Source of the DNA: Alphaproteobacteria bacterium
GTDB taxonomy: Bacteria; Pseudomonadota; Alphaproteobacteria; JACZXZ01
Direction of reading: 5' to 3'
Length of the DNA: 64,000 bases
Assembly: GCA_052143835.1 (NCBI GenBank)
Contig: JBKQRV010000142.1
Coordinates: 8,995-72,994, forward strand
A model generated the notes under the pieces. That model saw only the letters and a list, made by a program, of their open reading frames with translations. It ran no database searches and was not told where the DNA came from. Below, in pieces: positions 12,045-35,487 of this stretch. Numbering within the stretch: position 1 is the stretch's first letter; every line of letters starts with the position of its first letter. A program made the translations under genes and the position numbers.

Positions 12045-15000
12045 ATGAAATTCACCGACATCTTCATCCGCAGGCCGGTGCTGGCGACCGTCGTCAGCCT
12101 GCTCATCCTCGTGCTCGGCCTGCGCGCGGGCGGCGCGCTTCCCATCCTGCAATATCCGCGCACCGAGAACGCGGTGGTGACGGTCTCCACCACCTATTAC
12201 GGCGCCGATCCCGACGTCATCGCGGGCTTCATCACCACGCCGCTCGAGAACGCCATCGCGCAGGCGAACGGCATCGACTACATGACCTCGACCAGCCAGA
12301 GCAGCGTGAGCACGATCACCGTCTACCTGCGTCTCAACTACGACCCGGACAAGGCGCTGACCGAGATCCAGACCAAGGTCACCTCGGTGCTCAACCAGCT
12401 GCCCCCGGGCTCGCAGCAGCCCGTGTTGACGGTCTCGATCGGCCAGACCATCGACGCCATGTACATGGGCTTCAACAGCGACGTGCTGGCCGCGAACCAG
12501 ATCACCGACTACCTCGTCCGCGTGGTGCAGCCGAAGCTGCAGGCGGTCCCGGGCGTGCAGACCGCGGAGATTCTCGGCGGGCAGAATTTCGCGCTGCGCG
12601 CCTGGCTCGACCCGGCGAAGCTTGCGGCCTACGGCCTGACCGCGGCCGACGTGAGCACGGCGCTGGCGCAGAACGACTACATCTCCGGCCTCGGCAACAC
12701 CAAGGGCCAGATGGTGCAGGTCAACCTCTCCGCCTCCACCAGCCTGCATTCGGCCGAGGAGTTCGCCAATCTCGTGCTCAAGCAGGCGAACGGCGCCATC
12801 GTGCGCCTCAAGGACGTGGCCAACGTCACGCTCGGCGCCGACGACTACGAATCGCAGGTCGGCTTCGACGGCGAGAAGGCGGTCTATATCGGCATCCAGG
12901 TGGCGCCCGCCGCCAACCTGCTCGACGTGATCGCGGGCGTGCGCAAGATCTTCCCCGGCATCCAGGCGCAATTGCCCGAGGGGCTCAAGGGCACCATCGT
13001 CTACGATTCGACCGCCTTCGTGAACAGCGCGATCCGCGAGGTCGAGCGCACGCTCGTCGAAGCGCTGGTGATCGTGACCTTGGTGATCTTCGCCTTCCTG
13101 GGCTCGCTGCGCTCCGTCTTCATCCCGACCGTCGCCATCCCGCTCTCCCTCATCGGCACGCTGGCGATGATGCTGGTCTTCGGCTTCTCCATCAACCTCC
13201 TGACCTTGTTGGCATTGGTGCTCGCGATCGGCCTCGTCGTGGACGACGCCATCATCGTGGTCGAGAACGTCAACCGTCACCTCGACGAGGGCATGAAGCC
13301 GATCCCCGCCGCGATCGCCGCCGCGCGCGAGCTCGGCGGGCCGATCGTCGCCATGACGGTGGTGCTGGTCGCGGTCTACGTGCCGATCGGCTTCCAGGGC
13401 GGGCTCACCGGCGCGCTCTTCACCGAGTTCGCCTTCACCCTCGTGGGCGCCGTCACGGTCTCCGCCGTCGTGGCGCTGACGCTCTCGCCGATGATGTGCT
13501 CGCGTCTCCTGAAGCCGCACGGCGCCGACCGCCGCGGCCGGCAGGAGCAGGTGGTCGACTTCATCGACCGCCGCTTCGAGGCGGTGCGCCGCGGCTACGA
13601 GCGCTGGCTCCGCGGCAGCCTGAATTTCCTGCCGGTGACGGGGGTCTTCGCGCTGATCGTGCTCGGGAGCATCTATTTGCTCTACAGCGGCGCCAAGAGC
13701 GAGCTGGCGCCGCAGGAGGACGAGGGGGTCATCATTACGCAGTCGACGCCGGCGCCGAACGCCACCCTCGCGCAGAAGCTGCTCTACTCCCGCCAGGTCT
13801 ACGAGCTCTTCGCCAAGTACCCCGAGACGGCGCACGTCTTCCAGCTTTCCACCCCGAGCCGAAACATCGACGGCATGGTCTTCACGCCGTGGGACAAGCG
13901 CACGCGCACCACGAACCAGCTGCAGCCCATCCTCCAGCAGCAGCTCAACGGCATCGCCGGCGTTAGGGTCGTCGCCTTCCAGCTGCCGCCGCTGCCGGGA
14001 AGCCAGGGCCTGCCGATCCAGTTCGTCATCGACACCACCGACTCTTTCGCCCGCCTCAACGACGTGTCGGAGCGCTTCCTCGCGGAGGCGATCAAGAGCG
14101 GGATGTTCCTCTTCCTCGATACCGACCTCAAGCTCGACGATCCCCAGTCGACGGTCGTCATCGACCGCGACAAGACGGCGCAGCTCGGCTTGCGCATGAG
14201 CGACGTGGGCAGCGCCATGGCCTGGATGCTGGGCGGGGGCTACGTCAACTACTTTAGCCTGGACCAGCGCTCCTACAAGGTCATACCGCAGGTGCAGCAG
14301 CGCTATCGCCTCAACACCGGCCAGCTCCTCGATTACTACGTCGGCAGTGTGGGCGGCATTCCGATTCCGCTCTCGTCGGTCGCGCGCATCACCACCGAGA
14401 CCGTGCCGGAATCGCTCAATCACTTCCAGCAGCTCAACGGCGCCACCATCCAAGGCGTCGCCGCACCGGGCGTCGCCCAGGAGGATGCGCTCAACTATCT
14501 CAAGGGACTCGCGGAGCGCACGCTGCCGCAGGGCTATTCGATCGATTACGGCGGGGTCTCGCGCCAGTACGTGCAGGAATCGAGCGGCTTCGTCGTCACC
14601 TTCGCCTTCGCGCTGATCATCATCTTCCTCTCGCTCGCCGCACTCTTCGAGAGCTTCCGAGATCCGCTCATCATCCTGGTCTCGGTGCCGATGTCGATCG
14701 CAGGTGCCTTGATCTTCATCAGCGTCGGCCTAGGCGGCGCCACGCTCAACATCTACACCCAGGTCGGGCTCGTCACGCTCATGGGGCTCATCAGCAAGCA
14801 CGGCATCCTCATCGTCGAGTTCGCCAACGAGCAGCAGCGCCAAGGCAAGTCCAAGCGCGCGGCGATCGAGTCGGCGGCGGGCATCCGGCTGCGGCCGATC
14901 CTGATGACGACGGCGGCCATGGTGCTGGGCGTGGTGCCGCTCCTCATCGCCGGAGGTGCTGGTGCCGTGTCGCGCTTCGACATGGGGCTCGTCATCTTCG

Positions 15001-15131
15001 CCGGCCTTTCGATCGGGACGATCTTCACCCTCTTCGTGGTTCCCGCCGTCTATATGATGATCGCGGCCGATCACGCGAAGGCGAGAGAAGCCGCAGACGA
15101 GCCCGTGAGCACGGCGCCGCGCGAGGCGTGA
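12045..15131 (+). CDS. RND multidrug efflux transporter permease (AcrB/MdtB/MexB family)
   Basis: 1028 aa, starting MKFTDIFIRRPVLATVVSLLILVLG, with the 12-TM two-large-loop RND architecture. Confidence 0.9.
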   Translation: MKFTDIFIRRPVLATVVSLLILVLGLRAGGALPILQYPRTENAVVTVSTTYYGADPDVIAGFITTPLENAIAQANGIDYMTSTSQSSVSTITVYLRLNYDPDKALTEIQTKVTSVLNQLPPGSQQPVLTVSIGQTIDAMYMGFNSDVLAANQITDYLVRVVQPKLQAVPGVQTAEILGGQNFALRAWLDPAKLAAYGLTAADVSTALAQNDYISGLGNTKGQMVQVNLSASTSLHSAEEFANLVLKQANGAIVRLKDVANVTLGADDYESQVGFDGEKAVYIGIQVAPAANLLDVIAGVRKIFPGIQAQLPEGLKGTIVYDSTAFVNSAIREVERTLVEALVIVTLVIFAFLGSLRSVFIPTVAIPLSLIGTLAMMLVFGFSINLLTLLALVLAIGLVVDDAIIVVENVNRHLDEGMKPIPAAIAAARELGGPIVAMTVVLVAVYVPIGFQGGLTGALFTEFAFTLVGAVTVSAVVALTLSPMMCSRLLKPHGADRRGRQEQVVDFIDRRFEAVRRGYERWLRGSLNFLPVTGVFALIVLGSIYLLYSGAKSELAPQEDEGVIITQSTPAPNATLAQKLLYSRQVYELFAKYPETAHVFQLSTPSRNIDGMVFTPWDKRTRTTNQLQPILQQQLNGIAGVRVVAFQLPPLPGSQGLPIQFVIDTTDSFARLNDVSERFLAEAIKSGMFLFLDTDLKLDDPQSTVVIDRDKTAQLGLRMSDVGSAMAWMLGGGYVNYFSLDQRSYKVIPQVQQRYRLNTGQLLDYYVGSVGGIPIPLSSVARITTETVPESLNHFQQLNGATIQGVAAPGVAQEDALNYLKGLAERTLPQGYSIDYGGVSRQYVQESSGFVVTFAFALIIIFLSLAALFESFRDPLIILVSVPMSIAGALIFISVGLGGATLNIYTQVGLVTLMGLISKHGILIVEFANEQQRQGKSKRAAIESAAGIRLRPILMTTAAMVLGVVPLLIAGGAGAVSRFDMGLVIFAGLSIGTIFTLFVVPAVYMMIAADHAKAREAADEPVSTAPREA

Positions 15132-16810: not shown

Positions 16811-17452
16811 ATGGCGGGTTTCATGCGCCAGGCTGGCGATGTGCTTCTCGTCGTCGACGTGCAGTACGATTTCTGCCCGGGCGGCAGTCTCGCGGTCACG
16901 GGCGGCGATGAGGTGATCCCCATCGTCAACCGCCTCGCCCAGAGCTTCGCCCACCTGGTGCTGACCCAGGACTGGCATCCCCGCGGTCATCTCTCCTTCG
17001 CCTCCGCGCACCCGGGCTGCAAGCCGTTCGAGACGATGCCCCTGCCCTACGGCATGCAGACGCTGTGGCCCGATCACTGCGTGCAAGGGACGCCCGGTGC
17101 CGAGTTCCACGAGGCGCTCGACGTCCCCCGTGCCGAGCTCGTGCTGCGCAAGGGCTTCAGGCGCGAGATCGACTCCTATTCGGCGTTCTTCGAGAACGAC
17201 CGCACCACACCCACGGGCCTCGCGGGCTATCTTCGCGAGCGCGGCCTCACGCACCTTTTCATCGCCGGGCTGGCGCTCGATTTTTGCGTGCGTTGGTCGG
17301 CCGAGGACGCCCGCAGGCTCGGCTTCGAGGTGGTCGTCATCGAGGACGCCTGCCGCGCCATCGACACGGGCGGCAGCCTCGCCGCCGCGCGCACGGCACT
17401 CGTGGACTGCGGCGCTAAGCTCGTGCCGAGCATCGGCCTCGGCTGCGGGTGA
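16811..17452 (+). CDS. pncA: nicotinamidase/pyrazinamidase, isochorismatase family
   Basis: Starts LLVVDVQYDFCPGGSLAV and has the conserved Cys in FIAGLALDFCV, a PncA-like catalytic triad context. Confidence 0.75.
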   Translation: MAGFMRQAGDVLLVVDVQYDFCPGGSLAVTGGDEVIPIVNRLAQSFAHLVLTQDWHPRGHLSFASAHPGCKPFETMPLPYGMQTLWPDHCVQGTPGAEFHEALDVPRAELVLRKGFRREIDSYSAFFENDRTTPTGLAGYLRERGLTHLFIAGLALDFCVRWSAEDARRLGFEVVVIEDACRAIDTGGSLAAARTALVDCGAKLVPSIGLGCG

Positions 17453-17796: not shown

Positions 17797-18891
17797 TCAG
17801 CGCCGCTCGGGGAAAAGGCCGAGGAGACCGTCGCGCGAGGCGGCCGCCACCCCACGCTCGGTGATGAGCCCGGAAACCAGCCGCGCGGGCGTCACATCGA
17901 AGGCATAGTTGGCGGCGGGGCTGCCGTCGGGCGTGAGCTGCACGGTGACGATATTTCCTTCCGCGGTCTTGCCCTGGATGCGCACGACCTCCTCGCCCGA
18001 GCGCTCCTCGATGGGGATCTCGCTGAGGCCGTCCTTGACCGTCCAATCGATGGTGGGGGACGGCAGCGCAACATAGAACGGCACCCCGTTGTCCTTGGCG
18101 GCGAGCGCCTTGAGATAGGTGCCGATCTTGTTGCACACGTCGCCCTCGGAAGTGGTGCGGTCCGTGCCGACGATGGCGAGATCGACGAGGCCGCGCTGCA
18201 TGAGATGCCCGCCCGCGTTGTCGACGATGACGGTATGGGCGACGCCGTGGCGGCCGAGCTCCCATGCGGTCAGTGCCGCACCCTGGTTGCGCGGCCGTGT
18301 CTCGTCGACCCAGACGTGGATGGGGATGCCGTTGTCGTAGGCCATGTAGACGGGGGCGAGTGCCGTTCCCCAGTCGACCGTCGCCAGCCAGCCGGCATTG
18401 CAGTGGGTGAGCACATTGACGCGGCCCCAGCCGCCTTTCTCCTGCCAGGCCTTGCGGATGAGCTTCTCGCCGTGGCCGCCGATCGCCCGGTTGATCTCGA
18501 CGTCCTCGTCGCAGATCTCGGCCGCGCGCTTGTAGGCGGCGGCGACGCGCGCCTCGCGCTTGGTGTTGTAGAGGCGCTCGCGCATGTCGTCGAGCGCCCA
18601 GCGCAGGTTGATCGCGGTCGGCCGCGTGGCCAGCAGGAGCTCGTAAGCGCGATCGAGGGCCGCATCGGAAGGATCGGCCCGCGTGGCGAGTGCCACGCCG
18701 TAAGCGGCGGTGGCGCCGATGAGGGGTGCGCCGCGCACCAGCATGGCGCTGATCGCGTGTGCCACCTCCTCGAGCGTGGCAAGACGCACGGTTTCGAAGC
18801 GATGAGGCAGCCTGGTCTGGTCGATGATGGTGACCGACCAGCCGTCGTCGGAGAGCCAGATCGTGCGATAGGGAACGCCGTTCACCTTCAT
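17797..18891 (-). CDS. mtnA: S-methyl-5-thioribose-1-phosphate isomerase
   Basis: 364 aa in the eIF-2B alpha/beta/delta-like MtnA family ([31 protein letters not shown]). Confidence 0.9.
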
Positions 18892-19207
18892 GGCGGCGCG
18901 ACGATAGCCGAGGGCGACGGCCGGCTCAACTGCTCTCGCACTCGAGCGGGCGAGGCGCTCGCTCTCTTGCCTCGAGTGCCATGCTCCAAACGGCCCCCGA
19001 CGGCGGACCCCGCCGCCCGATCGCGCGCACGATCACGCAAATGGCACTGGCCATGGCCTTCGCCACGGTGGCAGACTTTTAGGGAGAGGATCGGCCGCCC
19101 TTGCCGGTGGCGGACGGCCGAGCGTCGCAACCCCCGTGCGCTCCCGACCATGACGGGCGGCGCCGACACTCTCGCCGAAGGCGAGGAGGTGGCAGGAGCA
19201 CCGTCCC

Positions 19208-19657
19208 ATGGTTCATCTCGACATCAACGGCCATGCGCAGGACGTCGAGGTCGATCCCTCGACGCCGCTCCTCTGGGTGCTGCGCGATACGCTCGGCTTG
19301 ACCGGCACCAAGTACGGCTGCGGCATTGCCGAGTGCGGCGCCTGCACCGTCCATATCGACGGCAAGGCAGTGCGCTCCTGCGCGATGCCGGCGAGTGCCG
19401 CCCAAGGCAAGAAGATCGTGACCATCGAGGGCCTGTCGGCCGACGGCAGCCATCCCGTGCAAGTGGCTTGGCGCGAGCTCGACGTGCCGCAGTGCGGCTA
19501 TTGCCAGGTCGGCATGATCATGGCGGCCGCGGCCCTGCTGAGGCTAAAGCCCAAGCCGACGGACGCCGAGATCGACGAAGCCATCACCAACATCTGCCGC
19601 TGCGGCACCTACACGCGCGCCCGCAAGGCGATCCACCTGGCCGCGGCCAAGGTGTAA
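19208..19657 (+). CDS. iorA: (2Fe-2S)-binding small subunit of molybdenum hydroxylase (isoquinoline 1-oxidoreductase alpha / aldehyde dehydrogenase small subunit)
   Basis: Two [2Fe-2S] motifs (CGIAECGAC and CGYCQ ... CRCGTY); 149 aa. Confidence 0.85.
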
Positions 19658-19669
19658 CGGGAGGGTGCG

Positions 19670-21835
19670 GTGAGCATGCGTGAAACGAAGGGCATCGGCC
19701 GGCGCTCCTTCCTGGTGAGCACGGCCGCCGCCGGCGGGCTCATGCTCGGCTTCCGCCTACCCGGCCTCGCACAGGCACTCGCGGCCTCCGAGACGAGAGC
19801 CGCCGGCGAGGTGAATGCTTGGCTCCTCATCGCTCCCGACGACAGCGTCACCATCCGCGTGGCGCGCTCGGAGATGGGACAAGGCAGCTTCACCGCCCTT
19901 CCCATGCTCGTCGCCGAGGAGCTCGAGTGCGATTGGTCGAAGGTCAGGGCCGAATATGCCTCGGCGAGCGAGAATCTCGCGCGCAACCGCGTCTTCGGCT
20001 CGATGACGACCGACGGCAGCCGCGCGATCCGCGACTCCCAGGAATATCTGCGCAAGGCGGGGGCCGCCGCGCGCGCGATGCTGCTCGAGGCCGCGGCCGA
20101 GAAATGGGGCGTGCCGCGCGCCGAGCTCACGGTCGAGAAGGGCGTCATCATGCACGGCGTCTCTGGCCGCCGGATGCGCTACGGCGAGATTGCCGAAGCC
20201 GCCGCCAAGATGGCGCCGCCCCGGGAGGTGAAGCTGAAGGAGCCCGGCGAGTGGACGCTCATCGGCAAGCCGCAGAGGCGCCTCGATGTCGCCGACAAGG
20301 TCTTGGGCAAGCCGGTCTTCGGCATGGACGTCCGCCTTCCCGGAATGCTTTACGCGACGATCGCGCAATGCCCGGTCTTCGGCGGCAAGCTCAAGAGCTA
20401 CGACGACAGCAAGATAAAGAGCATGAGCGGCGTGCGGCAGGTGGTGGCCCTGGCGGGCGCGGTCGCCGTCGTCGCCGACAGCTACTGGCAGGCCAAGCAG
20501 GCGCTCGATGCGCTCCCGATCGCGTGGGACGAGGGCGCCAACGCCAAGGCGAGCGACGCCGGAATCAGGGCATACCTCGAGGACGGCTTGCGTGCTGGCT
20601 ACGCCGTCGCCGCGCGTCGCGAAGGCGATGTCGAGGCAGCGCTCGCCGGCGCCGCCAAGGTGCTCGAAGCCGAGTATTTTGCCCCCTTCCTCAGCCACGC
20701 GACGATGGAGCCGATGAACGCCACGGCGCGCGTCGGCGCCGACAAGGTCGAGGTCTGGGCGCCCTCCCAGAACGCCGAGGCCTCGCTCGCCGCGGCGGCC
20801 GAGGCAGCCGGGGTCGATCCGCGCAAGGTCGAGGTTCACCTCACCATGCTGGGCGGCGGCTTCGGACGGCGGGTCGCCGCCCAGGATTACGTCAAGCAGG
20901 CCGTCGTCATCTCGAAAGCCGCGGGCCGGCCGGTGAAACTGGTGTGGTCGCGCGAGGAGGACACGAGACACGACTTCTATCGCCCGGTGAGCATGGCGAA
21001 GTTCACCGCGGCACTCGACAAGGACGGCATGCCGATCGCGTGGCGGAATCGGGTCACGGGCCAATCGATCCTCGCCTTCATGAAGCCGAGCAGGGTCAGG
21101 CACGCCTACGACGAGGAATTCCTCGAGGGGCTCGTGGACCTCCCTTACGGCATACCCAACATTCTCGTCGACTATGCGATGCGCAACACGCACGTGCCGG
21201 TCGGCTACTGGCGCTCGGTCAACCATTCGCAGAACGCCTTCTACGAGGAAAGCTTCCTCGACGAGGTGGCCCATGCGGGCGGCAAGGACCCCTACGAGCT
21301 GCGGCGCATCCTGCTCAAGGACAAGCCGAAACAGCGCGCCGTGCTCGAGGCCGCGGCCAGGAAGGTCGAGTGGGAGAAGCCGCCGCCAAGCGGCGTCCAC
21401 CGCGGCATCGCCTATCACGACGCCCGCGGCAGCCTCACCTGCCAGATCGCCGAGGTCTCCGTCGGTGCCAAGGGCGAGATCACGGTGCGCCGCATCGTTT
21501 GCGCCATCGATCCCGGCCATGTCGTCAACCCGGACACGGTCGAGGCGCAGATCGAAAGCGGCATCGTCTACGGGCTTTCCGCAGCACTTTACGGCGAGAT
21601 CACGATCAAGGACGGCCGCGTCGAGCAGTCGAATTTCGACAATTACCAGGTGCTGCGCATGAAGGAGATGCCGAAGATAGAGGTCGTGCAGGTGCCGAGC
21701 GGCGGATTCTGGGGCGGGATCGGCGAGGTAGGCGTGCCCGGCGCGGCCCCGGCGCTCTGCAACGCCATCTTTGCCGCGACGGGAAAGCGCATCCGCTCCT
21801 TGCCGCTCAAGAACCACGACCTGCGCTCGGCATGA
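19670..21835 (+). CDS. iorB: molybdopterin-binding large subunit of molybdenum hydroxylase (IorB-like), Tat-exported
   Basis: Tat motif GRRSFLV; aldehyde oxidase/xanthine dehydrogenase MoCo-binding domains; 721 aa. Confidence 0.85.
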   Translation: MSMRETKGIGRRSFLVSTAAAGGLMLGFRLPGLAQALAASETRAAGEVNAWLLIAPDDSVTIRVARSEMGQGSFTALPMLVAEELECDWSKVRAEYASASENLARNRVFGSMTTDGSRAIRDSQEYLRKAGAAARAMLLEAAAEKWGVPRAELTVEKGVIMHGVSGRRMRYGEIAEAAAKMAPPREVKLKEPGEWTLIGKPQRRLDVADKVLGKPVFGMDVRLPGMLYATIAQCPVFGGKLKSYDDSKIKSMSGVRQVVALAGAVAVVADSYWQAKQALDALPIAWDEGANAKASDAGIRAYLEDGLRAGYAVAARREGDVEAALAGAAKVLEAEYFAPFLSHATMEPMNATARVGADKVEVWAPSQNAEASLAAAAEAAGVDPRKVEVHLTMLGGGFGRRVAAQDYVKQAVVISKAAGRPVKLVWSREEDTRHDFYRPVSMAKFTAALDKDGMPIAWRNRVTGQSILAFMKPSRVRHAYDEEFLEGLVDLPYGIPNILVDYAMRNTHVPVGYWRSVNHSQNAFYEESFLDEVAHAGGKDPYELRRILLKDKPKQRAVLEAAARKVEWEKPPPSGVHRGIAYHDARGSLTCQIAEVSVGAKGEITVRRIVCAIDPGHVVNPDTVEAQIESGIVYGLSAALYGEITIKDGRVEQSNFDNYQVLRMKEMPKIEVVQVPSGGFWGGIGEVGVPGAAPALCNAIFAATGKRIRSLPLKNHDLRSA

Positions 21836-21884
21836 TCCGCGAGCGAGGACGGCGTTGCCGCCCTCCCGCCTGACCGAGGTGCCC

Positions 21885-23702
21885 TCAGGGCCTCGCGCTT
21901 GGCTCTTTCGTCGCCCTGCGGATGGCGTAGAGCGAGACGTTGCCGTAGCCCTTGGCGAGCGGCACGCTGCCGACGTAATCGCGCGCGTAGGGCGCGTTCG
22001 TCTCGAGCGCCAGCGCCGCGGCAAAGGGCTCGGTGACGTAGACCGAGCCGACCGGGGTGATCGGCTCGATGCGCGCCGCGCGGGTGACGTGGGCGCCGAA
22101 GAAGGAGGTGCGATCGAGCACCGGGTCGGTCATCTCGTTGACCGGCCCGTAGTGGCAGCCGATGCGCAGCGCCGTGTTCGCCGGCAAAGCGCTCCGCGCC
22201 AAATCGACGCGCGCCACGCGCTCCTGGATGGCAAGCGCGCAGGCGGTCGCCGCCTCGACATCGTCGAAGACGATGAAGAGCCCGTCGCCCCAGGTATTGC
22301 ACCACAGCACGTGCTCGCGAAAGCCGCGGATCGCACCCCCCATCGCACCCAGTATCTCTTGCACGAAGGCCGGGATTTGCCGCTCCGTGAGCTTGCTGAA
22401 GCCGCGCACGTCGCCGAAGAGAAAGGCGCAGAGCCGCCGCCCCTCGCCCGCGAGCGGCCCGCTCGGCCCCTCCGGCACCTCCGTGCAAGGCCGCCCAGTG
22501 CCGTCGGGTGCAATGATCAAGGTGGGATGCCCGGCCATGCGCCAGATGCGCACTTCCGCCCCCGTGCCGGCCAAGCCGTGCGAATGGTCGGGCGGCGTGC
22601 CGTCCCATAAGGCGATCTGCATTGCCTTGCCGTCGAGGAAGTCGGCGCGCTGCAAGGCCAGCCCCATGGCGTAGCGGCCGCCATAGGAGAAGAGCGCGCT
22701 CGAGCCGGCGAAATCGTCGCTCGTCGCCACGACCACGCGGCTCGCGCGCGCGAGGCAGGCCTCGAAACGCTCGAGCCAGCGCTGCCCCGCGGGCGCCACC
22801 GAGACCGCGCGGAACTCGTTGAGCTCGAAAGGGATGACGAGATGAAGCTCGGCCCCGCGCGCGAGCAGCGCCTCGGCGAAGATCACGTCGGCCCCCGCCG
22901 CGAGCGAGCCGTAGCCGTAACCGACGTCTCGTTCCGCGAGCGCCTCGCTGATCGCGCGGGCCGCGGCCGGCTCGTCGCTCTCCTTGAAGTGCCGCCCGAT
23001 GAGATGGCCGACGTAATGGATGACGGGTGCGGGTGCGAGCGGTGCGAGGATGCCCTCGTCGAGACCGAGCTGGCGGCAGGTCCGGCGCAGCTGGCGCCGC
23101 GTCGCCGCGCGCGCCTGCGTATCGACCGGGCGCACATCGGCGGCGCGGCCGATGAGCGCGCGCGCGGCAGCGACATTGCCGAGAATCAATTGCGCTTCGG
23201 CCTGCGTGGCCAGGCCGTAATAGTCGTCGGCCTTGCAGACCGCGAGCACCGCCTCCGCCGTGCGGCGCGCTTCGGCGTCGCGGCCGGCCCAGAGCAGGAG
23301 GGCCGCGGCATTGACGCCGGGATAGGGGTCGCGGGTCAGCGTGAAGACCTGGGCGTAGGCGGCGGCGGCGGCCTCCAACCGCTCGTTGCGCCGGCTCGAG
23401 GAGTCGGCGAGCGCCACATCCTTGAGCAGGCGCGCCTGGAGCGAGGGAAGGTCGACCGCAAGTTTGGCGTCGTCCGTTGCCGCCTCGCCCAGCGCCCACT
23501 TGCCGTAGAGGTCGAGCGCGCGCGCGGTGGCGCCGGCACGCGCCATGGCGAGGAGCGCACGATGCTTGTAGGCGAGAGCATCCGGGAATTCCTCGACGGC
23601 GCGATGGGCGAGATCGCAGGCGACGATCAGGTCGCCCCGCCGCATCGCCGCGTCGATCTCGGCGAGGCGTGCCGCCCCCTCTTCACCCCCTTGCGCCGTC
23701 AT
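21885..23702 (-). CDS. multidomain signalling protein: N-terminal TPR-like helical domain, SLOG (DprA/Smf-like Rossmannoid) domain, C-terminal class III adenylate/guanylate (nucleotidyl) cyclase domain
   Basis: Cyclase motifs: FGDVRGFS and WGDGLFIVF (metal-binding Asp), GCHYGPV and FGAHVTRAARIE. SLOG motif GYGYGSLAAGADVIFAEALLARGAELHLVIP resembles DprA GxARGID...GG.TIAVL. Start at MTAQGG with an AGAGG RBS. Confidence 0.75.
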   Translation of the reverse strand: MTAQGGEEGAARLAEIDAAMRRGDLIVACDLAHRAVEEFPDALAYKHRALLAMARAGATARALDLYGKWALGEAATDDAKLAVDLPSLQARLLKDVALADSSSRRNERLEAAAAAYAQVFTLTRDPYPGVNAAALLLWAGRDAEARRTAEAVLAVCKADDYYGLATQAEAQLILGNVAAARALIGRAADVRPVDTQARAATRRQLRRTCRQLGLDEGILAPLAPAPVIHYVGHLIGRHFKESDEPAAARAISEALAERDVGYGYGSLAAGADVIFAEALLARGAELHLVIPFELNEFRAVSVAPAGQRWLERFEACLARASRVVVATSDDFAGSSALFSYGGRYAMGLALQRADFLDGKAMQIALWDGTPPDHSHGLAGTGAEVRIWRMAGHPTLIIAPDGTGRPCTEVPEGPSGPLAGEGRRLCAFLFGDVRGFSKLTERQIPAFVQEILGAMGGAIRGFREHVLWCNTWGDGLFIVFDDVEAATACALAIQERVARVDLARSALPANTALRIGCHYGPVNEMTDPVLDRTSFFGAHVTRAARIEPITPVGSVYVTEPFAAALALETNAPYARDYVGSVPLAKGYGNVSLYAIRRATKEPSARP

Positions 23703-23976
23703 GCTCCCTCTGACGTTGTCCGCCCTTCCGCAGGAAGGCGGCATTTCCTCGCGGCAGAGCACGCCACCCGCCGCGAGAGAGCATAGCCGACCCCTCGCCC
23801 TCGGCGAAAGCCGCTAATTGGCCCGGGCGGCCTGCCATCGCGATTCAGCGCTTGTCCTTTGCCGTGTTACACTTTCGGCCGTCGCGGAGAGGCGCGTTGC
23901 AGAGGGGTCGGCCGCAGCGCCCCGAGGCTGGATGCTCTCTTGGAAGTCATCCGCCCGGGCAAGAGGAACCAACCGA

Positions 23977-26900
23977 ATGGCAGAACCGCTCAGGATCTTC
24001 ATCTCCTCGCCCGGCGACGTCGAGGAGGAGCGTCGGCGCGCGGCAATCGTCGTGGGCAGGCTCGCCCGCGAATTCGCGCGCTTCTTCGAGATCAAGCCGG
24101 TGCTTTGGGAATACGAGCCCATGCTCGCATCGGGCCACTTCCAGGACATCATCGAGCCGCCTTCGCGCTCCGACATCGAGGTGGTGATTCTGTGGTCGCG
24201 CCTCGGCACGCCGCTGCCGGCCGAGCGTTACCGCGGGATCGATGGACGGGCACCCGTCACCGGCACGGAATGGGAGTTCGAGGACGCGCTCAAGGCCCAC
24301 CGCGAGCGAGGTGCTCCGGACCTCCTGGTCTACCGCAAGAAGACCAAGGGAATCGCCGAGTTCGACAGCACGGAAGAGCTCGAGGCGGCGGCACTTCAGC
24401 GCAAGGCGCTCGAGCAGTTCTGGGAGCGCTACTTCGGCAGCGCTCAGAGCGGCTTCAAGGCGGCGTTCAACCTCTTCACCGACCGCGACGAGTTCGAGCA
24501 AATGCTCGAGTCGCACCTGAGGACGCTCATCCGCGAGCGCCTGCCGCGGCTCGCGGAGTCGCGCCGAGCCTCCGCCGAGATCGCCTGGCACCAAGGCTCG
24601 CCCTATCGCGGGCTCCAGTACTTCGATCTCGAGCACGCGCCGATCTTCTTCGGCCGCGCGCGCGCGCAACGCCAAGTGACCGAGGCGCTGGCGCGCCGCG
24701 CGGCAGAGGGCTCTGCCTTCGTGCTCGTCTTGGGCATGAGCGGCTGCGGCAAGTCCTCGCTCGTGCGCGCCGGCGTGCTGCCCGAGCTGATGACGCCGGG
24801 CGTGGTGAGCGGCGTCGGGATGTGGCGGCACTGCGTGTTCCGGCCGAGCGAAGGCGAGGGCGACCTGATCGGCGGGCTGATCCGGGCGCTGTCGGAGCGG
24901 GAGCAGGCTCTGCCCGAGCTCTTGGAGGGCGGCCTCAGCGTCGAGCAGGTGAGCGCTCTTGTGCGCGACGTGCCGCATCAGGCGACCGTGACGATCGCAC
25001 CGAGCCTCAAGCGCGCGGCCGAGCGCGTCAAGGGTATCGCCGGCGAGGGCCGCCTCATCCTCGTCATCGACCAATTGGAGGAGATGTTCTCGCTCCCCTC
25101 GGTCGACAAGGAGGCGCGCGAGCGCTTCGTGACGCTCATCGCAGCCCTTGCGGAGAGCCGGGTCGTGTGGGTGATCGGCGTGATGCGCAGCGACTTCTAC
25201 CACCGCGCCGCCGAGTTGCCGGTCCTCGTGCGGCTTGCGGCCGGCCGGGGAAGCTACCTGCTCACCGAGCCGACCGCGCCGGAGATCGCGGAGATGATCA
25301 ATCAACCGGCCGCCGCCGCCGGGCTCGCCTTCGAGGTGGACGCGGAAAGCGGCGAGCGGCTTGACCGGGTGCTGCAGGAAGCGGCGGCCCGCGAGCCGGG
25401 CGCCTTGCCGCTTCTCGAGTTCGCGCTCGACCAGCTCTATCGCAAGGACATCGAGGAGAAGCACGGCGAGGTCCTGACCTTCGCGAGCTACCGCGATCTC
25501 GGCGAGCTAAGGGGTGCGGTGGCGCGCCACGCGGACGAGGTGTGCGACGCCTTGCCGGCGGACGCGCGAGCGGCGCTTCCGAGCGTATTGCGCGCGCTGG
25601 TCACCGTGGGGTCGGGGGAGGACCGCGCCACCGCGCGCGCGGTGCGTCGCGACGAGATCGGCGCCAATGCGGCGCGGGCCGCCGTCATCGACCGCTTGAT
25701 CGAGGCGCGCCTGCTCGTGAGCAGCGAAGAGGAGGGTGCCGGACAGGTTCGTCTCGCGCACGACATGCTCATCGCAAGCTGGCCGCGCCTCAGGGATCTC
25801 GTGGCCGAGGATCGCGACTTCCTGCGCACGCGCGAGCGGGTCGACCAGGCGGCGGTGGAATGGGAGCGGCGCGGCCGGGCCGACGATTTCCTTTTGCCGG
25901 GCGGCCGCTCGCTCGCCGAGGCGGAGGACCTGCTCGCGCGGCGCAGCGAGGATATCGAGAGCCGCGACCGCCTCTTCATCGAGACCTCGGTTCGGCGCGA
26001 GCGCGCGCAGCGGGAGCGGCGGCTGAAACAAACGCGCGCGGTCGCCGCCGTGATGGGGCTGCTCGCCGTGGTCGCCGCCGGCTTCGGCTGGTACGCCTAC
26101 GACCGCCGCGCCGCGGCGGAGCGCAATTACGAGATCGCCGTGCGCGCGGCTCAAACGCTCGTTCGCGACGTGGCGGACCGCCTGCGCAACCTCGGCCTGC
26201 CCGCAGCCAGCGTGCGCGACATCCTGACGAGCGCCGAATCGCTTTACAAAGACCTCACTCTCGACGCCGCCTCGCGGCCCGACCTTCTCGGCCGGAAGGC
26301 GGAGACGCTGATGTCGCTCGCCGACACCTACGCGGCACTCGGGGATACCGGTGCCGAGCGCAAGCGGGCCGAAGAGGCGCGCGCGGCCTTCCTCGATCTC
26401 ATCGCAAAGCACCCGAACGATACGACCTGGCAGCGCGACCTTTCCGTCAGCCAAAACAAGGTCGGAGACGCGCTTCGCGCCCAAGGTGATCTGGCCGGCG
26501 CGCTTGAGAGCTATCGCGCCGGCCTGGATACCACGGAGAAGCTCGCGGCGCGCGATGCTTCCAACGCCGTCTGGCAGCGCGATCTCGCCATCAGCCACGA
26601 GCGCATCGGCGACACGCTCACCGCGGAAGGAGACCTCGGCGGCGCGCTCGCCAGCTATCGCAAGGGCCTCGCGATCCACGAGGCGCTGGCGAAACGCAAT
26701 CCCTCCGATAGCGAGGGGCAGCGCGACCTTTCAGTCAGCGACAACAAGATCGGCGACGCGCTCCGCAATGGCGGAGAGCCGGCGGAGGCGCTCAAGAGCT
26801 ACCGCGCCGGCTTGGCGATCATGGAAGCGCTCACGGCGAAGGATCCCTCGAACACGCAGTGGCTGCGCGACCTCGCCATCAGCCACGAGCGGATCGGCAA

Positions 26901-28233
26901 TGTACTCCGCATCCAGGGCGACGAGACGGAGGCGCTTGCGAGCTACCGCAAGAGCCTCGCGATTCACGAGCAACTTGCGGCGCGCGACTTGTCCAACACG
27001 GTGTGGCAGCTCGACGTCTCCATCGGCAACGAGAGGATCGGCGACATGCTCGCCAGCCAGGGCAATCTCGCGGAGGCGCTCAAGAGCTACCGCACGTCCC
27101 TCGGGACGCGAGAGAGGCTGGTGGCGCGCGATCCCTCCAATTCCGACTGGCAGCGCGATCTCTCGGTTGGCGAAAACAAGGTGGGGGACGTGCTCCGCGT
27201 CCAGGGCGATGCGAAGGGCGCGCTTGCCAGCTATCGCACGGGCCTCGACATCATGGAGAAGCTCGTGGCGCGGGATCCCTCGAATGCCGGCTGGCAGCGG
27301 GATGTCTCAATCAGCTACGAGCGGATCGGCGATGCGCTGGCCGCCCAGGGAAACCAAGGAGAGGCGCTGGCGAGCTATCGCAAGAGCCTCGATATTCGCG
27401 AGAAGCTTGCCGCGCGCGACCCATCCAACATCGGCTGGACCTACGACCTGTCCATCAGCAATACCAAGATCGGCGACGCGCTCCGCGCACAAGGGGACCA
27501 GGACGGAGCGCTTGCGAGCTATCGCACGGAGCTCGCGATCGTCGAGAAGCTGGCGGCGCGCGACCCCACGAACGCGGAGTGGCAGCGCGACGTCTCCGTC
27601 GGGCAAAACCGCATCGGCGACGTGCTCCGCGCGAAGAACGACTTGGGGGGAGCGCTCGCGAGCTATCGTACCGGTCTTGCGGTCATGGAGAAGCTCTCGG
27701 CGCGCGATCGTGCGAACGCGCTTTGGCAGCACGATCTCTGCGTCAGCTACGAGCGCATCGGCGACGTGCTGGCGCTTCAACGGGATCCCGCGGGGGCGCT
27801 CGCATACTATCGGCAGGAGCTCGAGCTCATCGGCAAGCTTGCGGCGGCCAATCCCTCGAACCTCTCCTGGCAGCGCGAGCTCTACCTCACGCAAAACCGC
27901 GTCGGCAACGCGCTTGCCGCAACGGGTGATCAGGCGGGAGCGCTCGCGAGCTTTCGCGCCGGCCTTGAGACCATTTCGCCGCTGGCATCGCGCGATCCAT
28001 CCAACACCGGCGAGCAGCACGATCTCGCCGTCAGCCACGAGCGGATCGCGAGCGCGCTGAGCGCGCTCGGGAACCAGGCCGAGGCGCTTGCAAGCTACAA
28101 TAGGAGCCTCGAAATCATCGAGACGCTCCTCGCGAAGCAGCCGTCGAATACACTCTGGCAGCATGATCGCTCCTATTTGCGCGGCGAAATCGGGACTCTC
28201 GCAAAAAATTCGCCAAGCGGTTCCGCCCAATGA
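23977..28233 (+). CDS. STAND-type P-loop NTPase with N-terminal DUF4062/TIR-like domain, single TM helix and C-terminal array of about 13-14 TPR_10/12-type (42-aa) repeats
   Basis: N-terminal IFISSPGDVEEER plus a conserved acidic TEWEFEDAL. Walker A is VLVLGMSGCGKSSLV and Walker B is LILVIDQLEE. TM helix is AVAAVMGLLAVVAAGFGWYAY. The C-terminal repeats have WQRDL anchors. An AGGA RBS precedes the ATG at 23977; the ORF's upstream extension to 23818 is rejected. Confidence 0.75.
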   Translation: MAEPLRIFISSPGDVEEERRRAAIVVGRLAREFARFFEIKPVLWEYEPMLASGHFQDIIEPPSRSDIEVVILWSRLGTPLPAERYRGIDGRAPVTGTEWEFEDALKAHRERGAPDLLVYRKKTKGIAEFDSTEELEAAALQRKALEQFWERYFGSAQSGFKAAFNLFTDRDEFEQMLESHLRTLIRERLPRLAESRRASAEIAWHQGSPYRGLQYFDLEHAPIFFGRARAQRQVTEALARRAAEGSAFVLVLGMSGCGKSSLVRAGVLPELMTPGVVSGVGMWRHCVFRPSEGEGDLIGGLIRALSEREQALPELLEGGLSVEQVSALVRDVPHQATVTIAPSLKRAAERVKGIAGEGRLILVIDQLEEMFSLPSVDKEARERFVTLIAALAESRVVWVIGVMRSDFYHRAAELPVLVRLAAGRGSYLLTEPTAPEIAEMINQPAAAAGLAFEVDAESGERLDRVLQEAAAREPGALPLLEFALDQLYRKDIEEKHGEVLTFASYRDLGELRGAVARHADEVCDALPADARAALPSVLRALVTVGSGEDRATARAVRRDEIGANAARAAVIDRLIEARLLVSSEEEGAGQVRLAHDMLIASWPRLRDLVAEDRDFLRTRERVDQAAVEWERRGRADDFLLPGGRSLAEAEDLLARRSEDIESRDRLFIETSVRRERAQRERRLKQTRAVAAVMGLLAVVAAGFGWYAYDRRAAAERNYEIAVRAAQTLVRDVADRLRNLGLPAASVRDILTSAESLYKDLTLDAASRPDLLGRKAETLMSLADTYAALGDTGAERKRAEEARAAFLDLIAKHPNDTTWQRDLSVSQNKVGDALRAQGDLAGALESYRAGLDTTEKLAARDASNAVWQRDLAISHERIGDTLTAEGDLGGALASYRKGLAIHEALAKRNPSDSEGQRDLSVSDNKIGDALRNGGEPAEALKSYRAGLAIMEALTAKDPSNTQWLRDLAISHERIGNVLRIQGDETEALASYRKSLAIHEQLAARDLSNTVWQLDVSIGNERIGDMLASQGNLAEALKSYRTSLGTRERLVARDPSNSDWQRDLSVGENKVGDVLRVQGDAKGALASYRTGLDIMEKLVARDPSNAGWQRDVSISYERIGDALAAQGNQGEALASYRKSLDIREKLAARDPSNIGWTYDLSISNTKIGDALRAQGDQDGALASYRTELAIVEKLAARDPTNAEWQRDVSVGQNRIGDVLRAKNDLGGALASYRTGLAVMEKLSARDRANALWQHDLCVSYERIGDVLALQRDPAGALAYYRQELELIGKLAAANPSNLSWQRELYLTQNRVGNALAATGDQAGALASFRAGLETISPLASRDPSNTGEQHDLAVSHERIASALSALGNQAEALASYNRSLEIIETLLAKQPSNTLWQHDRSYLRGEIGTLAKNSPSGSAQ

Positions 28234-28916: not shown

Positions 28917-29597
28917 ATGATGAACTATCCCCCGGTGCCCGAGGCGAGCGAGGTCGCGCGTCACTTCAGCGAGGCCGTGCGCCGCTCGCGGCCCGCCGAC
29001 TGGCCCTACCGCCATTGGAAACTCAGCGACGTTTTGCCGGAGAGCATGTGCACCGGCATCCTTACCCTCCCGATCGTCCCCCCGATGCTCGGGAAAACCG
29101 ATGGCACGCGCAATACCTACAACAGCCGGCGCACCTTCATAACCCCATCGCTGCGCGCCAAATTCCCGACGTGCGCGGTGCTCGCGGACGCGCTGCAACG
29201 GCCGGACGTGGCACGGCTGATGGCCGAGACCTGCCACATCGAGGCCGCCGGCAGCTATCTGAGGATGGAATACATTCAGGATACCGACGGCGCTTGGCTC
29301 GAGCCGCATCGCGACATTCCCGAAAAGCTGTTCTCGATGGTGATCTATCTCTGTACCGGGCCGGAGGCGAAGGACTGGGGTACGGATATCTATGATAGCG
29401 AACGCCGCTGGGTCGGGCGCTCCTCGGCCGAGTTCGACTCCGGTGTGATTTTCGTTCCCGGCCCCGCGACCTGGCACGGCTTCGATCCGCGGCCCATCAT
29501 CGGCGTGCGGCGCCTGATGGAGATCAATTATGTCCGGCCGGACTGGCGTGACCGCGAACAGCTGTCAATCCCGGATCGGCCGATCGTGCTCGCCTAG
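28917..29597 (+). CDS. putative 2OG-Fe(II) oxygenase superfamily protein
   Basis: Has an HxD (LEPHRDIPE) and a distal His (ATWHGF) in a double-stranded beta-helix-like context. The family assignment is tentative. Confidence 0.45.
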   Translation: MMNYPPVPEASEVARHFSEAVRRSRPADWPYRHWKLSDVLPESMCTGILTLPIVPPMLGKTDGTRNTYNSRRTFITPSLRAKFPTCAVLADALQRPDVARLMAETCHIEAAGSYLRMEYIQDTDGAWLEPHRDIPEKLFSMVIYLCTGPEAKDWGTDIYDSERRWVGRSSAEFDSGVIFVPGPATWHGFDPRPIIGVRRLMEINYVRPDWRDREQLSIPDRPIVLA

Positions 29598-29668
29598 CGA
29601 CTTCCGTTAAGGCTGCCTCCTCCGATATCCCCTCGATACTCCCTTGACTCGTTCCTTTCCCTTGGTTA

Positions 29669-29698
29669 GAACAAATAAGGAACGAACAAATCGCGAAC
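29669..29698 (+). promoter_or_regulatory. tandem alphaproteobacterial LexA SOS boxes (GAAC-N7-GAAC x2) upstream of imuA
   Basis: GAACaaataagGAAC at 29669-29683 is immediately followed by GAACaaatcgcGAAC at 29684-29698, about 20 bp upstream of the imuA ATG at 29717. Confidence 0.75.
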
Positions 29699-29716
29699 GA
29701 TTTCTGGGAGAATTCC

Positions 29717-30493
29717 ATGAGCTATCGCCACGATCTCGTCTCGGTCGAGGCGCTCAAGAGCCGCATCCTGGCGCTCGAGGGCGCCTGGCAGGGTGTCGGC
29801 CGGCACGAGGAAGCACGGCCCGCAGCCCCGCTTGGGCTCGAGCCGTTGGACCGTGCCTTGCCCTGGGGCGGTCTGCCCACGGCCTGTCTCCACGAGGTCT
29901 CGGCAGGAGCCGCGGCCGATGGTGCCGTTGCCGGCTTCGCTGCCTATCTCCTCGCCCGCTTGAGCGCCGCGGCGGGAAGGCGGCAGTCCGCCGTGCTTTG
30001 GTGTGCCGCGGGCGAGGGGCTTTACGGGCCGGGTCTTGCCGCCTACGGGCTGGATACGCACCGGCTCATCCTCGTGCGCGGACGGCGCCAGGCCGACCTT
30101 CTGTGGGCGCTCGAAGAAGCCTTGCGCTCGGGTGCCCTCGCCGCCGTGCTGGGCGAGATCGAGGAGGCGGACTTGACTGCCACGCGCCGGCTCCAGCTTG
30201 CCGCCGAGGCCGGGCGCACGACGGCCCTCCTGCTCCGTCCTCTGGGCGGCAAGCCCGCCCCCTCGGCCGCCGTCACCGCTTGGCGCATTGCCGCCGCCCC
30301 CTCGGGAGCGGCCCCCTGGGGCGCCGGACTCGGCCGTGAGCGCTGGCGCCTCGAGCTCGTGCGTTGCCGCGGAGGGTTGCCGCGTCAATGGCTTGTGGAG
30401 TGGAACGATGAGGCGAATCGTCTCGCTGTCGCTGCCGAGTTTCGCGACCGATCGGTTGACGCGCCTACCGGCGCTCGCCGCCTGGCGGGCTAA
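29717..30493 (+). CDS. imuA: translesion DNA synthesis-associated protein ImuA (SulA/RecA-like)
   Basis: 258 aa, first gene of the imuA-imuB-dnaE2 cassette, LexA boxes upstream, with a RecA-fold-like core. Confidence 0.8.
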   Translation: MSYRHDLVSVEALKSRILALEGAWQGVGRHEEARPAAPLGLEPLDRALPWGGLPTACLHEVSAGAAADGAVAGFAAYLLARLSAAAGRRQSAVLWCAAGEGLYGPGLAAYGLDTHRLILVRGRRQADLLWALEEALRSGALAAVLGEIEEADLTATRRLQLAAEAGRTTALLLRPLGGKPAPSAAVTAWRIAAAPSGAAPWGAGLGRERWRLELVRCRGGLPRQWLVEWNDEANRLAVAAEFRDRSVDAPTGARRLAG

Positions 30494-31949
30494 GCCCTTC
30501 GCGACCACCGCGAAAGCGGGCGGCCGGCTCGTCATCGTCGCCGCCAATGCGCCGGCCGAGGCCGCCGGCATTGCTCCCGGCCAAGTGCTGGCGGACGCGC
30601 GCGCGCTTGAGCCGGGCTTGCGTGTCGTCGCCGCCGACCCCTCTGCCGACGGCTCTGCCCTTGCAGCCCTTGCCGACGGGTTGACGCGCTACACCCCTTG
30701 GGTGGCCGTCGACGAGCAGGGGGAAGGTGGCGCGCGCGGCGCGCTTCTCGACATCACCGGCTGCGCCCATCTCTTCGGCGGCGAGGCGGCCCTCTTGGCC
30801 GACCTCATAGGCCGGCTCGAGCGCTGCGGCTTCGCCGCGCGTGCGGCAATCGCAGCGAGTGCGGGGGCCGCCTGGGCGGTCGCCCGCTTCGCTCCTCACG
30901 ATCGCCTCATCATCGCGCCCGGCGCCGAGGGCGAAGCGCTCGCGGCTCTCCCCGTTGCCGCCTTGAGGCTGCCGGCCGAGACGGCGGGCAGGCTCGAGCG
31001 CCTCGGGCTGCGCCGCATCGGCGCCCTCTATACGCTGCCGCGGGCACCCCTCGCACGCCGCTTCGGGAGCCTCGTCGGCCGCCGTCTCGACCAAGCGCTC
31101 GGCCGCGTGCAGGAGCCGATCTCGCCGCGCCGGCCGGTCGAGCCCTGGCGCCTCCAGCTCGCCTTTGCCGAGCCGATCGCGCAACGCGAGGATATCGCGG
31201 CCGCCACTGAGCATCTCACGGCCGCGCTCTGCCGCCGCTTGGCCGAGGAGATGAAGGGCGCGCGCCGGCTCGTCCTCGCACTTTACCGGGTCGACGGCAC
31301 CCTCGCGCGCGTCGAGATCGGCACCAGCCGCCCGGTGCGCGAGACCAAGCATCTCATGCGTCTCTTCGCCGAGAAGCTCGACGGCCTCGACGTCGGGCTC
31401 GGCCTCGACCTCGTGGCGCTTTCCGCCCCCGTGGTCGAGCCGCTCGCGGCGTCCCAGAGCGGCCTGCTCGCTGGCGCGAGCGAGGCAGCGCTGCCCGCGC
31501 TCGCTGCCCTTGTCGACCGCCTCGCCAACCGCCTCGGCGCGAGCGAGGTACGCCGGCTGGTCCCCGTCGCGAGCCACCTTCCCGAGCGCGCCCAGCGCGC
31601 GGCCCCGGCACTGGCCTCGGCGGGTGCCGCGGAAGCTCCTTGGCGTAAGCGCCGGCCGCGTCCCTTGCGCCTCTTCACGCGACCCCAGCCGGTCGATGCG
31701 ATCGCCCCCGTGCCCGATGATCCCCCCCTCCTCTTCCGCTGGCGCGCGCAGCTCCACCGCATCCGCCGCGCCGACGGGCCCGAGCGCATCGCCGGCGAGT
31801 GGTGGCAGGGCAACACCCCCGCCCAAGCCGAGGTGCGCGACTATTATAGGGTCGAGGACGAGGCGGGCAGGCGCTTCTGGCTCTATCGCGAGGGCCTCTA
31901 CCACCCCGAGCGCCGCCCGCGCTGGTTCCTCCACGGGCTGTTCGCGTGA
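30408..31949 (+). CDS. imuB: Y-family DNA polymerase-like protein ImuB
   Basis: 513 aa starting MRRIVSLSLPSFATDRL (UmuC-like N-terminus). It overlaps the imuA 3' end in another frame and lies upstream of dnaE2. Confidence 0.8.
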   Translation: MRRIVSLSLPSFATDRLTRLPALAAWRAKPFATTAKAGGRLVIVAANAPAEAAGIAPGQVLADARALEPGLRVVAADPSADGSALAALADGLTRYTPWVAVDEQGEGGARGALLDITGCAHLFGGEAALLADLIGRLERCGFAARAAIAASAGAAWAVARFAPHDRLIIAPGAEGEALAALPVAALRLPAETAGRLERLGLRRIGALYTLPRAPLARRFGSLVGRRLDQALGRVQEPISPRRPVEPWRLQLAFAEPIAQREDIAAATEHLTAALCRRLAEEMKGARRLVLALYRVDGTLARVEIGTSRPVRETKHLMRLFAEKLDGLDVGLGLDLVALSAPVVEPLAASQSGLLAGASEAALPALAALVDRLANRLGASEVRRLVPVASHLPERAQRAAPALASAGAAEAPWRKRRPRPLRLFTRPQPVDAIAPVPDDPPLLFRWRAQLHRIRRADGPERIAGEWWQGNTPAQAEVRDYYRVEDEAGRRFWLYREGLYHPERRPRWFLHGLFA

Positions 31950-31974
31950 GGTGACCGCGCCGTCAAAGTGTTTT

Positions 31975-32177: not shown

Positions 32178-32202
32178 CATCTGTCGTGCACTGGGATTAC
32201 CC

Positions 32203-35487
<3,285 letters not shown>

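Follow-up and report, generated by a model that had tools for sequence, protein, structure and literature searches.

A TPR-S, SLOG and class III cyclase protein encoded beside TIR-domain genes in many bacterial genomes

A 605-residue protein encoded in the genome of an alphaproteobacterium joins a TPR-S region, a SLOG domain and a divergent class III nucleotidyl cyclase domain, and in many genomes the genes of its family lie beside genes for TIR-domain proteins. This genomic context, chiefly the TIR association, is the new result reported here; genes for proteins that bind cyclic mononucleotides (cNMP) were also enriched nearby. Because an immune-type TIR gene stands beside the cyclase gene in most genomes, the protein probably turns one alarm signal into a second. 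Our preferred reading, to which we assign a probability of about one half, is a Thoeris-like relay, in which a TIR protein would signal through TPR-S and SLOG to the cyclase and the cyclase would answer with a cNMP. In accounts of bacterial immunity and regulation, signalling by TIR proteins (Thoeris) and signalling by cyclic mononucleotides (Pycsar, cAMP/CRP) count as separate branches. If correct, the relay would form a natural bridge between these branches, with one protein in hundreds of species joining two TIR-signal-type sensors to a cyclase.

The gene occupies positions 21885–23702, minus strand, of the analysed stretch of 64,000 nucleotides from contig JBKQRV010000142.1, hereafter the window. 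Its ATG, at 23702 on the minus strand, is preceded by a ribosome-binding site, GAGGGAG. Several overlapping open reading frames are present in this sequence (68% GC), and we chose this one as the coding frame because of its codon-position GC values (0.73, 0.53 and 0.88 at the first, second and third positions). All of the motifs that had been quoted for the protein in the sequence-only reading were found in the 605-residue product. A Pro/Gly-rich linker (residues 404–424; 22431–22493, minus strand), variable in length and sequence in the alignment of homologues, separates the SLOG and cyclase domains.

The N-terminal repeat region (residues 1–221; 23040–23702, minus strand) had been described as all-alpha and TPR-like, over the first ~240 residues of the protein. 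The description could be made specific: residues 28–136 (23295–23621) matched the Pfam family TPR-S ("Tetratricopeptide Repeats-Sensor"; PF20308) over profile positions 5–102 of 102 and above the curated threshold (E 3e-10; 41 bits, cutoff 27.6), and a match to PF13281 (MAP3K_TRAF_bd; 27.1 bits) overlapped it. A precomputed TPR-S annotation was carried by nearly all homologues. TPR-S, reportedly defined by Burroughs and Aravind in 2020, is predicted to sense signals that derive from TIR proteins.

The middle domain (residues 222–403; 22494–23039, minus strand) belongs to a SLOG clade that is missed by current domain libraries. Residues ~140–420 gave no match in Pfam, NCBIfam or PADLOC, and the Pfam SLOG families (YpsA, DprA, LOG, STALD, TPALS, LSDAT and others) yielded nothing at E ≤ 1 with the protein or at E ≤ 10 with 38 domain sequences. 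No PDB sequence match was obtained with a profile of 38 homologous middle-domain segments. In structural alignments, the domain matched SLOG proteins rather than an unrelated Rossmann fold, and on this ground the earlier assignment to SLOG was right; its finer description as DprA-like was not, the domain being YpsA-like instead. Residues invariant across the family fall in the expected loops (G232-H233, Y264-G265, G270-x-D272, A276-E277, P291-F292 and W366-D367), and a G-x-A-G-T-x-x-[DE]-[VI]-x-x-W motif is also conserved. The conserved Gly-rich loops and acidic residues would be compatible with binding or processing of a nucleotide ligand. Bacillus subtilis YpsA (PDB 2nx2), a member of the SLOG superfamily, shares only 17% identity with the domain, and the Pfam YpsA model did not match here. 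YpsA is a stand-alone cell-division regulator, as described in the part of its Bacillus literature used here (PMC6459960), whereas the SLOG unit in question is one domain of a cyclase protein. Iyer et al. (2022; PMC9503650) grouped TIR, DRHyd and SLOG domains as a single Rossmannoid clade and placed cADPR-sensing SLOGs in its YpsA-like part.

The C-terminal domain (residues 425–594; 21921–22430, minus strand) matched PF00211 across residues 425–594, above the curated threshold (30.2 bits, cutoff 21.9). PDB cyclases were matched down to E 1e-10, and profile alignment to the solved cyclases 3mr7, 3et6, 2w01 and the ANP receptor fixed the register. Conservation was then counted over 121 homologue sequences from several phyla. 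The metal-binding Asp residues that had been proposed in FGDVRGFS and WGDGLFIVF were confirmed, D431 and D473 each being Asp in 121 of 121 sequences. Also invariant were R513, for phosphate binding, and K584, for the triphosphate in a KGKG-like hairpin (Arg and Lys, respectively, in 121 of 121), and R544, for the transition state, was Arg in 120 of 121; the roles of these last three positions we take from mammalian adenylate cyclase numbering. Substitution of the catalytic Asp or Arg residues, the sign of a pseudo-cyclase, was thus not observed. Other positions depart from the canonical enzymes. At position 540, the site of the transition-state Asn in the VN-x-A-S-R motif, the protein has Thr, and the homologues have Ser (111), Thr (7) or, in just 2 of 121, Asn. 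The canonical base-specifying pair (Lys/Asp for ATP, Glu/Cys for GTP) was not found at positions 469 and 533: the first, the Lys (adenylate cyclase) or Glu (guanylate cyclase) site, was Asn in 121 of 121, and the second, the Asp/Cys site, is Ser here and mostly Asn (86), Ser (19) or Ala (11) among the 121. The claim that the catalytic residues are intact therefore holds for the strongly constrained core of metal-binding Asp, Arg and Lys residues, but not for the transition-state Asn or the specificity pair, where the pocket is non-canonical. By its profile match and core residues the domain classifies as a class III cyclase that lacks the canonical Asn and specificity pair. Cyclic-nucleotide synthesis is predicted, with a product base that cannot be read from the sequence.

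Two features of this pocket, the invariant Asn and the Ser in place of Asn, appear to be new for cyclases, and the invariance of N469 points to selection on the substrate pocket. In Rv1900c and Rv0386, class III cyclases of mycobacteria, Asn or Gln/Asn take the place of the substrate-specifying Lys/Asp pair and the enzymes remain active, a likeness to the present protein; their regulatory domains are unrelated to TPR-S and SLOG. Among sequence matches in the PDB up to E 10, there was no solved structure named as PycC or as a pyrimidine cyclase.

The departures from canonical residues raise the prospect of a pseudo-cyclase, a C-terminal module serving nucleotide binding or dimerisation while the real activity resides in SLOG, for example as a LOG-like N-glycosidase with a nucleotide as its substrate. 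Besides the Ser or Thr at the transition-state site and the missing Lys/Asp or Glu/Cys pair, the low Pfam score (30 bits) would fit such a module, as would a relative at one locus (L084) that carries a decayed cyclase remnant. The SLOG domain, moreover, retains a GT-x-x-[DE] motif that resembles PGGxGTxxE, the motif of LOG proteins. Five core residues invariant or nearly so across 121 sequences from several phyla are not easily reconciled with this account, which we consider very unlikely because of that conservation; the strong constraint on the core argues against a dead domain. The enrichment of cNMP-binding genes near the gene and the existence of active class III cyclases with unusual specificity residues likewise speak for catalysis.

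The family is large and uniform. At least 890 protein clusters matched over the full length (44–95% identity, about 590–620 residues), and relatives are encoded in at least 567 species-representative genomes of Alpha-, Beta- and Gammaproteobacteria, Actinomycetota, Cyanobacteria, Myxococcota, Acidobacteriota and Binatota. The three-domain architecture was the same throughout. Among the matches listed, the closest came from metagenome-assembled genomes of soil Alphaproteobacteria (95–96% identity). Database names for the family are limited to "TRAFs-binding domain-containing", "TPR repeat" and "adenylate/guanylate cyclase domain-containing", and the TPR-S-SLOG-cyclase architecture may already have been catalogued computationally, for instance by Burroughs and Aravind in 2020.

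Gene neighbourhoods were examined at 83 loci (80 genomes, two contigs and the window). Neighbouring families were found by targeted HMM searches, and distances to TIR genes were computed with a guard against over-extended open reading frames. With an iterated TIR HMM, a TIR open reading frame was found at 51 of the 83 loci; the nearest lay within 400 bp of the cyclase gene at 34 of 83 and within 2 kb at 45 of 83. Pfam's TIR_2 matched 24 of 51 immediately upstream genes. The association decayed steeply with distance: 52 TIR frames occurred within 5 kb, as compared to 4 between 5 and 10 kb, in shells that were sampled to a similar extent (715 and 603 kb, respectively; binomial p = 3e-10). Several TIR-cyclase pairs were operonic, with gaps of 0–10 bp. 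When TIR-like genes were included by counting DUF4062 partners, 58 of 83 loci had such a neighbour.

The catalytic Glu of the TIR domains was at least 90% conserved. The remainder of the TIR protein varies widely and the cyclase protein is constant, a combination of constant module and hypervariable sensor that has been described for conflict systems (PMC8195603). The partners include TIR alone, TIR with ~230 residues of unknown sequence, TIR-WD40 (~940 residues), TIR-nSTAND1-WD40 (at locus L031), TIR-NACHT-FGE, TIR-TPR, TIR-Sel1 and TIR-LprI. They showed no similarity to the domains of the cyclase family, lacking both TPR-S and SLOG. In PADLOC, the TIR proteins gave only weak, generic matches, to ThsB, SAVED-TIR and Ago-TIR models. 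Downstream neighbours contained no third conserved gene other than TIR or WD40 genes, and for the Caballeronia homologue, the lipoprotein-like gene on its upstream side had no informative match.

In the window itself the neighbouring gene is of a related kind. It encodes 1418 residues from an ATG at 23977 (23977–28233, plus strand) and is divergent from the cyclase gene across an intergenic region of 274 bp (23703–23976, placed from the two start codons), in which neither a sigma-70 consensus site nor an inverted repeat was found. The N-terminal domain (23977–24600, plus strand) is DUF4062-like and belongs to the TIR/DRHyd group of Rossmannoids, by a small margin of ~2 Z units over generic flavodoxin-like folds. 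It is followed by an nSTAND1 NTPase domain (24601–25884, plus strand; PF20703, E 9e-96, 322 bits, residues 262–689 of the open reading frame) and an array of TPR repeats (26308–27549, plus strand; TPR_12, TPR_1, TPR_2, TPR_10 and other TPR families, residues ~831–1244 of the frame), which is the probable sensor region. A canonical TIR gene is missing from the window's clade, and in the window only this partner, by its TIR-like fold, would count as a TIR-type neighbour. The divergent pairing is kept in the window and at four other loci (L001, L003, L004 and L028); a related partner gene adjoins the cyclase gene at L019 and lies 4.9 kb away at L014. The TIR-nSTAND1-WD40 protein of L031, with the same architecture and a bona fide TIR domain, supports the functional equivalence of the DUF4062-nSTAND1-TPR and TIR partners. 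On the other side of the cyclase gene in the window, a convergent gene for a MoCoBD oxidoreductase (19670–21835) was considered as a functional partner and rejected; it is kept only in the closest relative (L005), and other genes take its place at L001.

The second association, with cNMP-binding proteins (PF00027), is weaker than the first. HMM searches located such proteins at 23 of 83 loci, within 5 kb at 22 and adjacent to the cyclase gene at 7; counted by distance, 23 open reading frames lay within 5 kb and 2 between 5 and 10 kb (p = 5e-5). None was present in the window. The products would serve varied outputs: CRP-type regulators, a cNMP-gated ion channel, cNMP-C39 peptidase-ABC exporters, cNMP-MFS, cNMP-histidine kinase and cNMP-oxidoreductase proteins, and stand-alone domains. 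At three loci (L012, L017 and L033) a CRP/FNR-family regulator is encoded directly downstream, with Mycobacterium tuberculosis CRP and Corynebacterium GlxR as best PDB matches (E 2e-25).

Such regulators adjoining the gene would also suit a housekeeping cyclase, one whose SLOG and TPR-S sense an endogenous metabolite (NAD(P) or ADPR status, for example) and thereby set the level of cAMP or cGMP to which CRP-type regulators respond. The TIR genes would then be neighbours because they share a regulon with the cyclase gene or serve an NAD-linked pathway outside immunity. The cell-division role of YpsA, as given in the part of PMC6459960 used here, agrees with this account, as does the distribution of the gene, which is chromosomal and vertically widespread, rare on plasmids and without relatives on viral contigs. 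Furthermore, 25 of 83 loci had no TIR or TIR-like gene; about a third of these were truncated contigs, and the rest had unremarkable genes nearby, for instance those for ABC transporters, glyoxalase and histidine kinases. We nevertheless regard a housekeeping role as unlikely. Against it stand the strength and distance decay of the TIR association, the neighbourhood in the relative L001, where a caspase-Sel1 gene and PIN/RHH toxin-antitoxin pairs surround the gene, and the hypervariable sensors and STAND NTPases of the partners, which are typical of conflict systems (PMC8195603).

We return to the relay, in which the cyclase gene would supply both reception and output in a Thoeris-like module of two genes. 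The proposed order of events is as follows: a triggered partner, either a TIR protein or, in the window, the TIR-like DUF4062-nSTAND1-TPR protein, would make an NAD+-derived nucleotide; the TPR-S region, the YpsA-like SLOG domain or both would bind it; and binding would bring the C-terminal cyclase domains together into productive dimers or oligomers. Class III cyclase domains must dimerise to form their active sites. The activated cyclase would then make a cyclic mononucleotide, of a base that the model leaves unspecified, which would act on the cNMP-binding proteins encoded nearby at about a quarter of the loci. The analysis establishes the three domains, the conserved catalytic core and the two genomic associations; which way the signal runs, what ligand is bound, activation by ligand-induced oligomerisation and the immune role we infer from genomic context and homology. 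The suggestion, made earlier from the sequence, that the protein couples ligand sensing to synthesis of a second messenger gains support as a prediction from the linkage to TIR-domain and cNMP-binding genes. We favour the relay because the partner TIR proteins have variable sensor parts, the cyclase protein is constant, and the YpsA-like SLOG clade includes cADPR sensors (PMC9503650).

Signal could instead run in the opposite direction, in a Pycsar-like manner: the cyclase protein would both sense the trigger and produce the signal, and cNMP would switch on the TIR or DUF4062 protein as an effector that depletes NAD+. TIR domains indeed often serve as NADase effectors, in Pycsar and STAND/Avs proteins among others, according to the portion used here of a December 2025 survey of TIR systems (bioRxiv 10.64898/2025.12.03.692087). 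TPR repeats can sense proteins, and the conserved catalytic Glu of the TIR domains fits either role. However, none of 58 TIR open reading frames encoded a cNMP-binding domain, and the TIR proteins bear sensor-type modules of their own (WD40, TPR, Sel1, NACHT and nSTAND1), for which reasons we judge this direction quite improbable. The cyclase protein also has two domains otherwise tied to perception of TIR products, and PycC models in PADLOC did not match it. Pycsar cyclases resemble it in being of class III type with non-canonical base-specifying residues, and some loci of the family have cNMP-binding proteins nearby, but TPR-S and SLOG are absent from Pycsar cyclases, as cNMP-binding domains are from the present TIR partners.

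The closest precedent for the relay is Thoeris. In type I, ThsA (SIR2-SLOG) works with the TIR protein ThsB, and the SLOG domain of ThsA senses TIR-made 3'cADPR. The cyclase protein carries two domains, SLOG and TPR-S, for which perception of a TIR product is predicted, as expected of a Thoeris-type effector, although no defence-system model in PADLOC matched it. In the parts of the December 2025 survey used here, 29 putative Thoeris types were defined, with effectors of SLOG, Macro, SLATT, caspase and hydrolase kinds, and canonical cADPR activated ThsI, the effector of type VIII, given there as "CMP hydrolase and TPR" (bioRxiv 10.64898/2025.12.03.692087). We take the TPR of ThsI to be Pfam's TPR-S, a name not used in those parts of the survey, so that the two proteins are compared by description only; the TPR-S match is above threshold in the cyclase protein. 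ThsI differs in joining its TPR to a DRHyd/CMP hydrolase domain, where the present protein has SLOG and a cyclase. No adenylate or guanylate cyclase effector was found in the survey's main text or in the part of its supplements that was covered. The system would thus be Thoeris-like in its working, although it cannot be filed as a Thoeris member from sequence alone.

In its most specific form the proposal is that the family is an undescribed Thoeris-type effector, converting a TIR-made NAD-derived signal into a further messenger of different chemistry, a cNMP, possibly other than cAMP or cGMP, through its invariant Asn/Ser-type pocket, to be read by local regulators, channels and exporters. 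We advance this form tentatively, as a possibility that falls short of even odds. If true, it would describe a three-tier cascade in which STAND-type TIR or DUF4062 sensors stand upstream and Thoeris signalling meets that of Pycsar and cNMP; conceptually, the cascade would be akin to plant TNL-to-EDS1 signalling.

A link to animal ASK kinases through TPR-S adds evolutionary interest. ASK1 (MAP3K5), whose domains Burroughs and Aravind reportedly named DRHyd-TPR-S-PH-kinase in 2020, also combines TPR-S/MAP3K_TRAF_bd repeats with a Rossmannoid of the TIR/DRHyd/SLOG class and an enzymatic signalling output. The two proteins differ in domain order, Rossmannoid type and output (kinase in one, cyclase in the other), and the profile match of the N-terminal repeats to the central regulatory region of ASK1 (PDB 5ulm) was weak, at E 0.066.

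Three genes of the window are ordinary chromosomal ones: an AcrB-type RND pump gene (12045-15131, plus strand; E 1.6e-256), a member of the isochorismatase family (16811-17452) and, on the minus strand, an IF-2B/MtnA-like gene (17797-18891). The latter two are syntenic with L001, the locus of a close relative. Between the conserved IF-2B (MtnA-like) gene and the cyclase gene, the close relatives differ. In L001 (12003-17254) a PIN/RHH toxin-antitoxin pair is encoded there, alongside a second cyclase-domain gene and a protein that joins a caspase domain (Peptidase_C14) to Sel1; the window stretch (18891-21885) contains only a MoCoBD oxidoreductase (19670-21835). This stretch looks like a variable, island-like hotspot.

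On the other side, the immediate neighbour of the nSTAND1 gene looks like an imuA-imuB-dnaE2 mutagenesis cassette (28917-35487, plus strand). It consists of two plus-strand ORFs (28917-29597 and about 30198-31949) ahead of a DnaE-type polymerase gene (31510-35487, plus strand) with PHP, DNA_pol3_alpha, finger, HHH_6, and OB domains. At the equivalent position in L001, a DnaE-type polymerase comes after a 258-aa gene and a 480-aa gene (IMS/DUF6504).

PDC-S60, a candidate single-gene defence system in PADLOC, is matched by the nSTAND1 protein's N-terminal domain (23977-24540, plus strand) at E 5e-6, over profile positions 3-169 of 906. This domain is common to at least 983 database proteins. Many of them are entered as short ORFs, about 200-350 aa in length; some come from short contigs and so may be fragments.

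In Novosphingobium sp. RL4 (replicon NZ_CP141945.1; L084, 3796-8123), a 497-aa relative retains both TPR-S and SLOG. All that is left of the cyclase at its C-terminus is a decayed remnant that lacks the metal-Asp half, and this copy may be degenerating. A TIR ORF lies upstream of it, and downstream is a CRP-like ORF with a cNMP-binding domain. Plasmid pSBC2-4 of Caballeronia sp. SBC2 (L083) carries a family member and, about 3.4 kb or two genes away from it, a separate gene pair (1-2545) encoding a TIR protein and a DUF4231 protein. In the DUF4231 protein, the SLOG portion of the family HMM is matched by residues 106-224 (E 1.4e-5), and the pair resembles Thoeris configurations of the TIR + SLOG/SLATT type.

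In three actinobacterial loci (L021, L056, and L080), large fusion proteins combine two N-terminal cNMP-binding domains with a C39 peptidase-ABC exporter of the bacteriocin-exporter type. These proteins recur within a few kb of the cyclase gene; as an output, export regulated by cNMP would be unusual.
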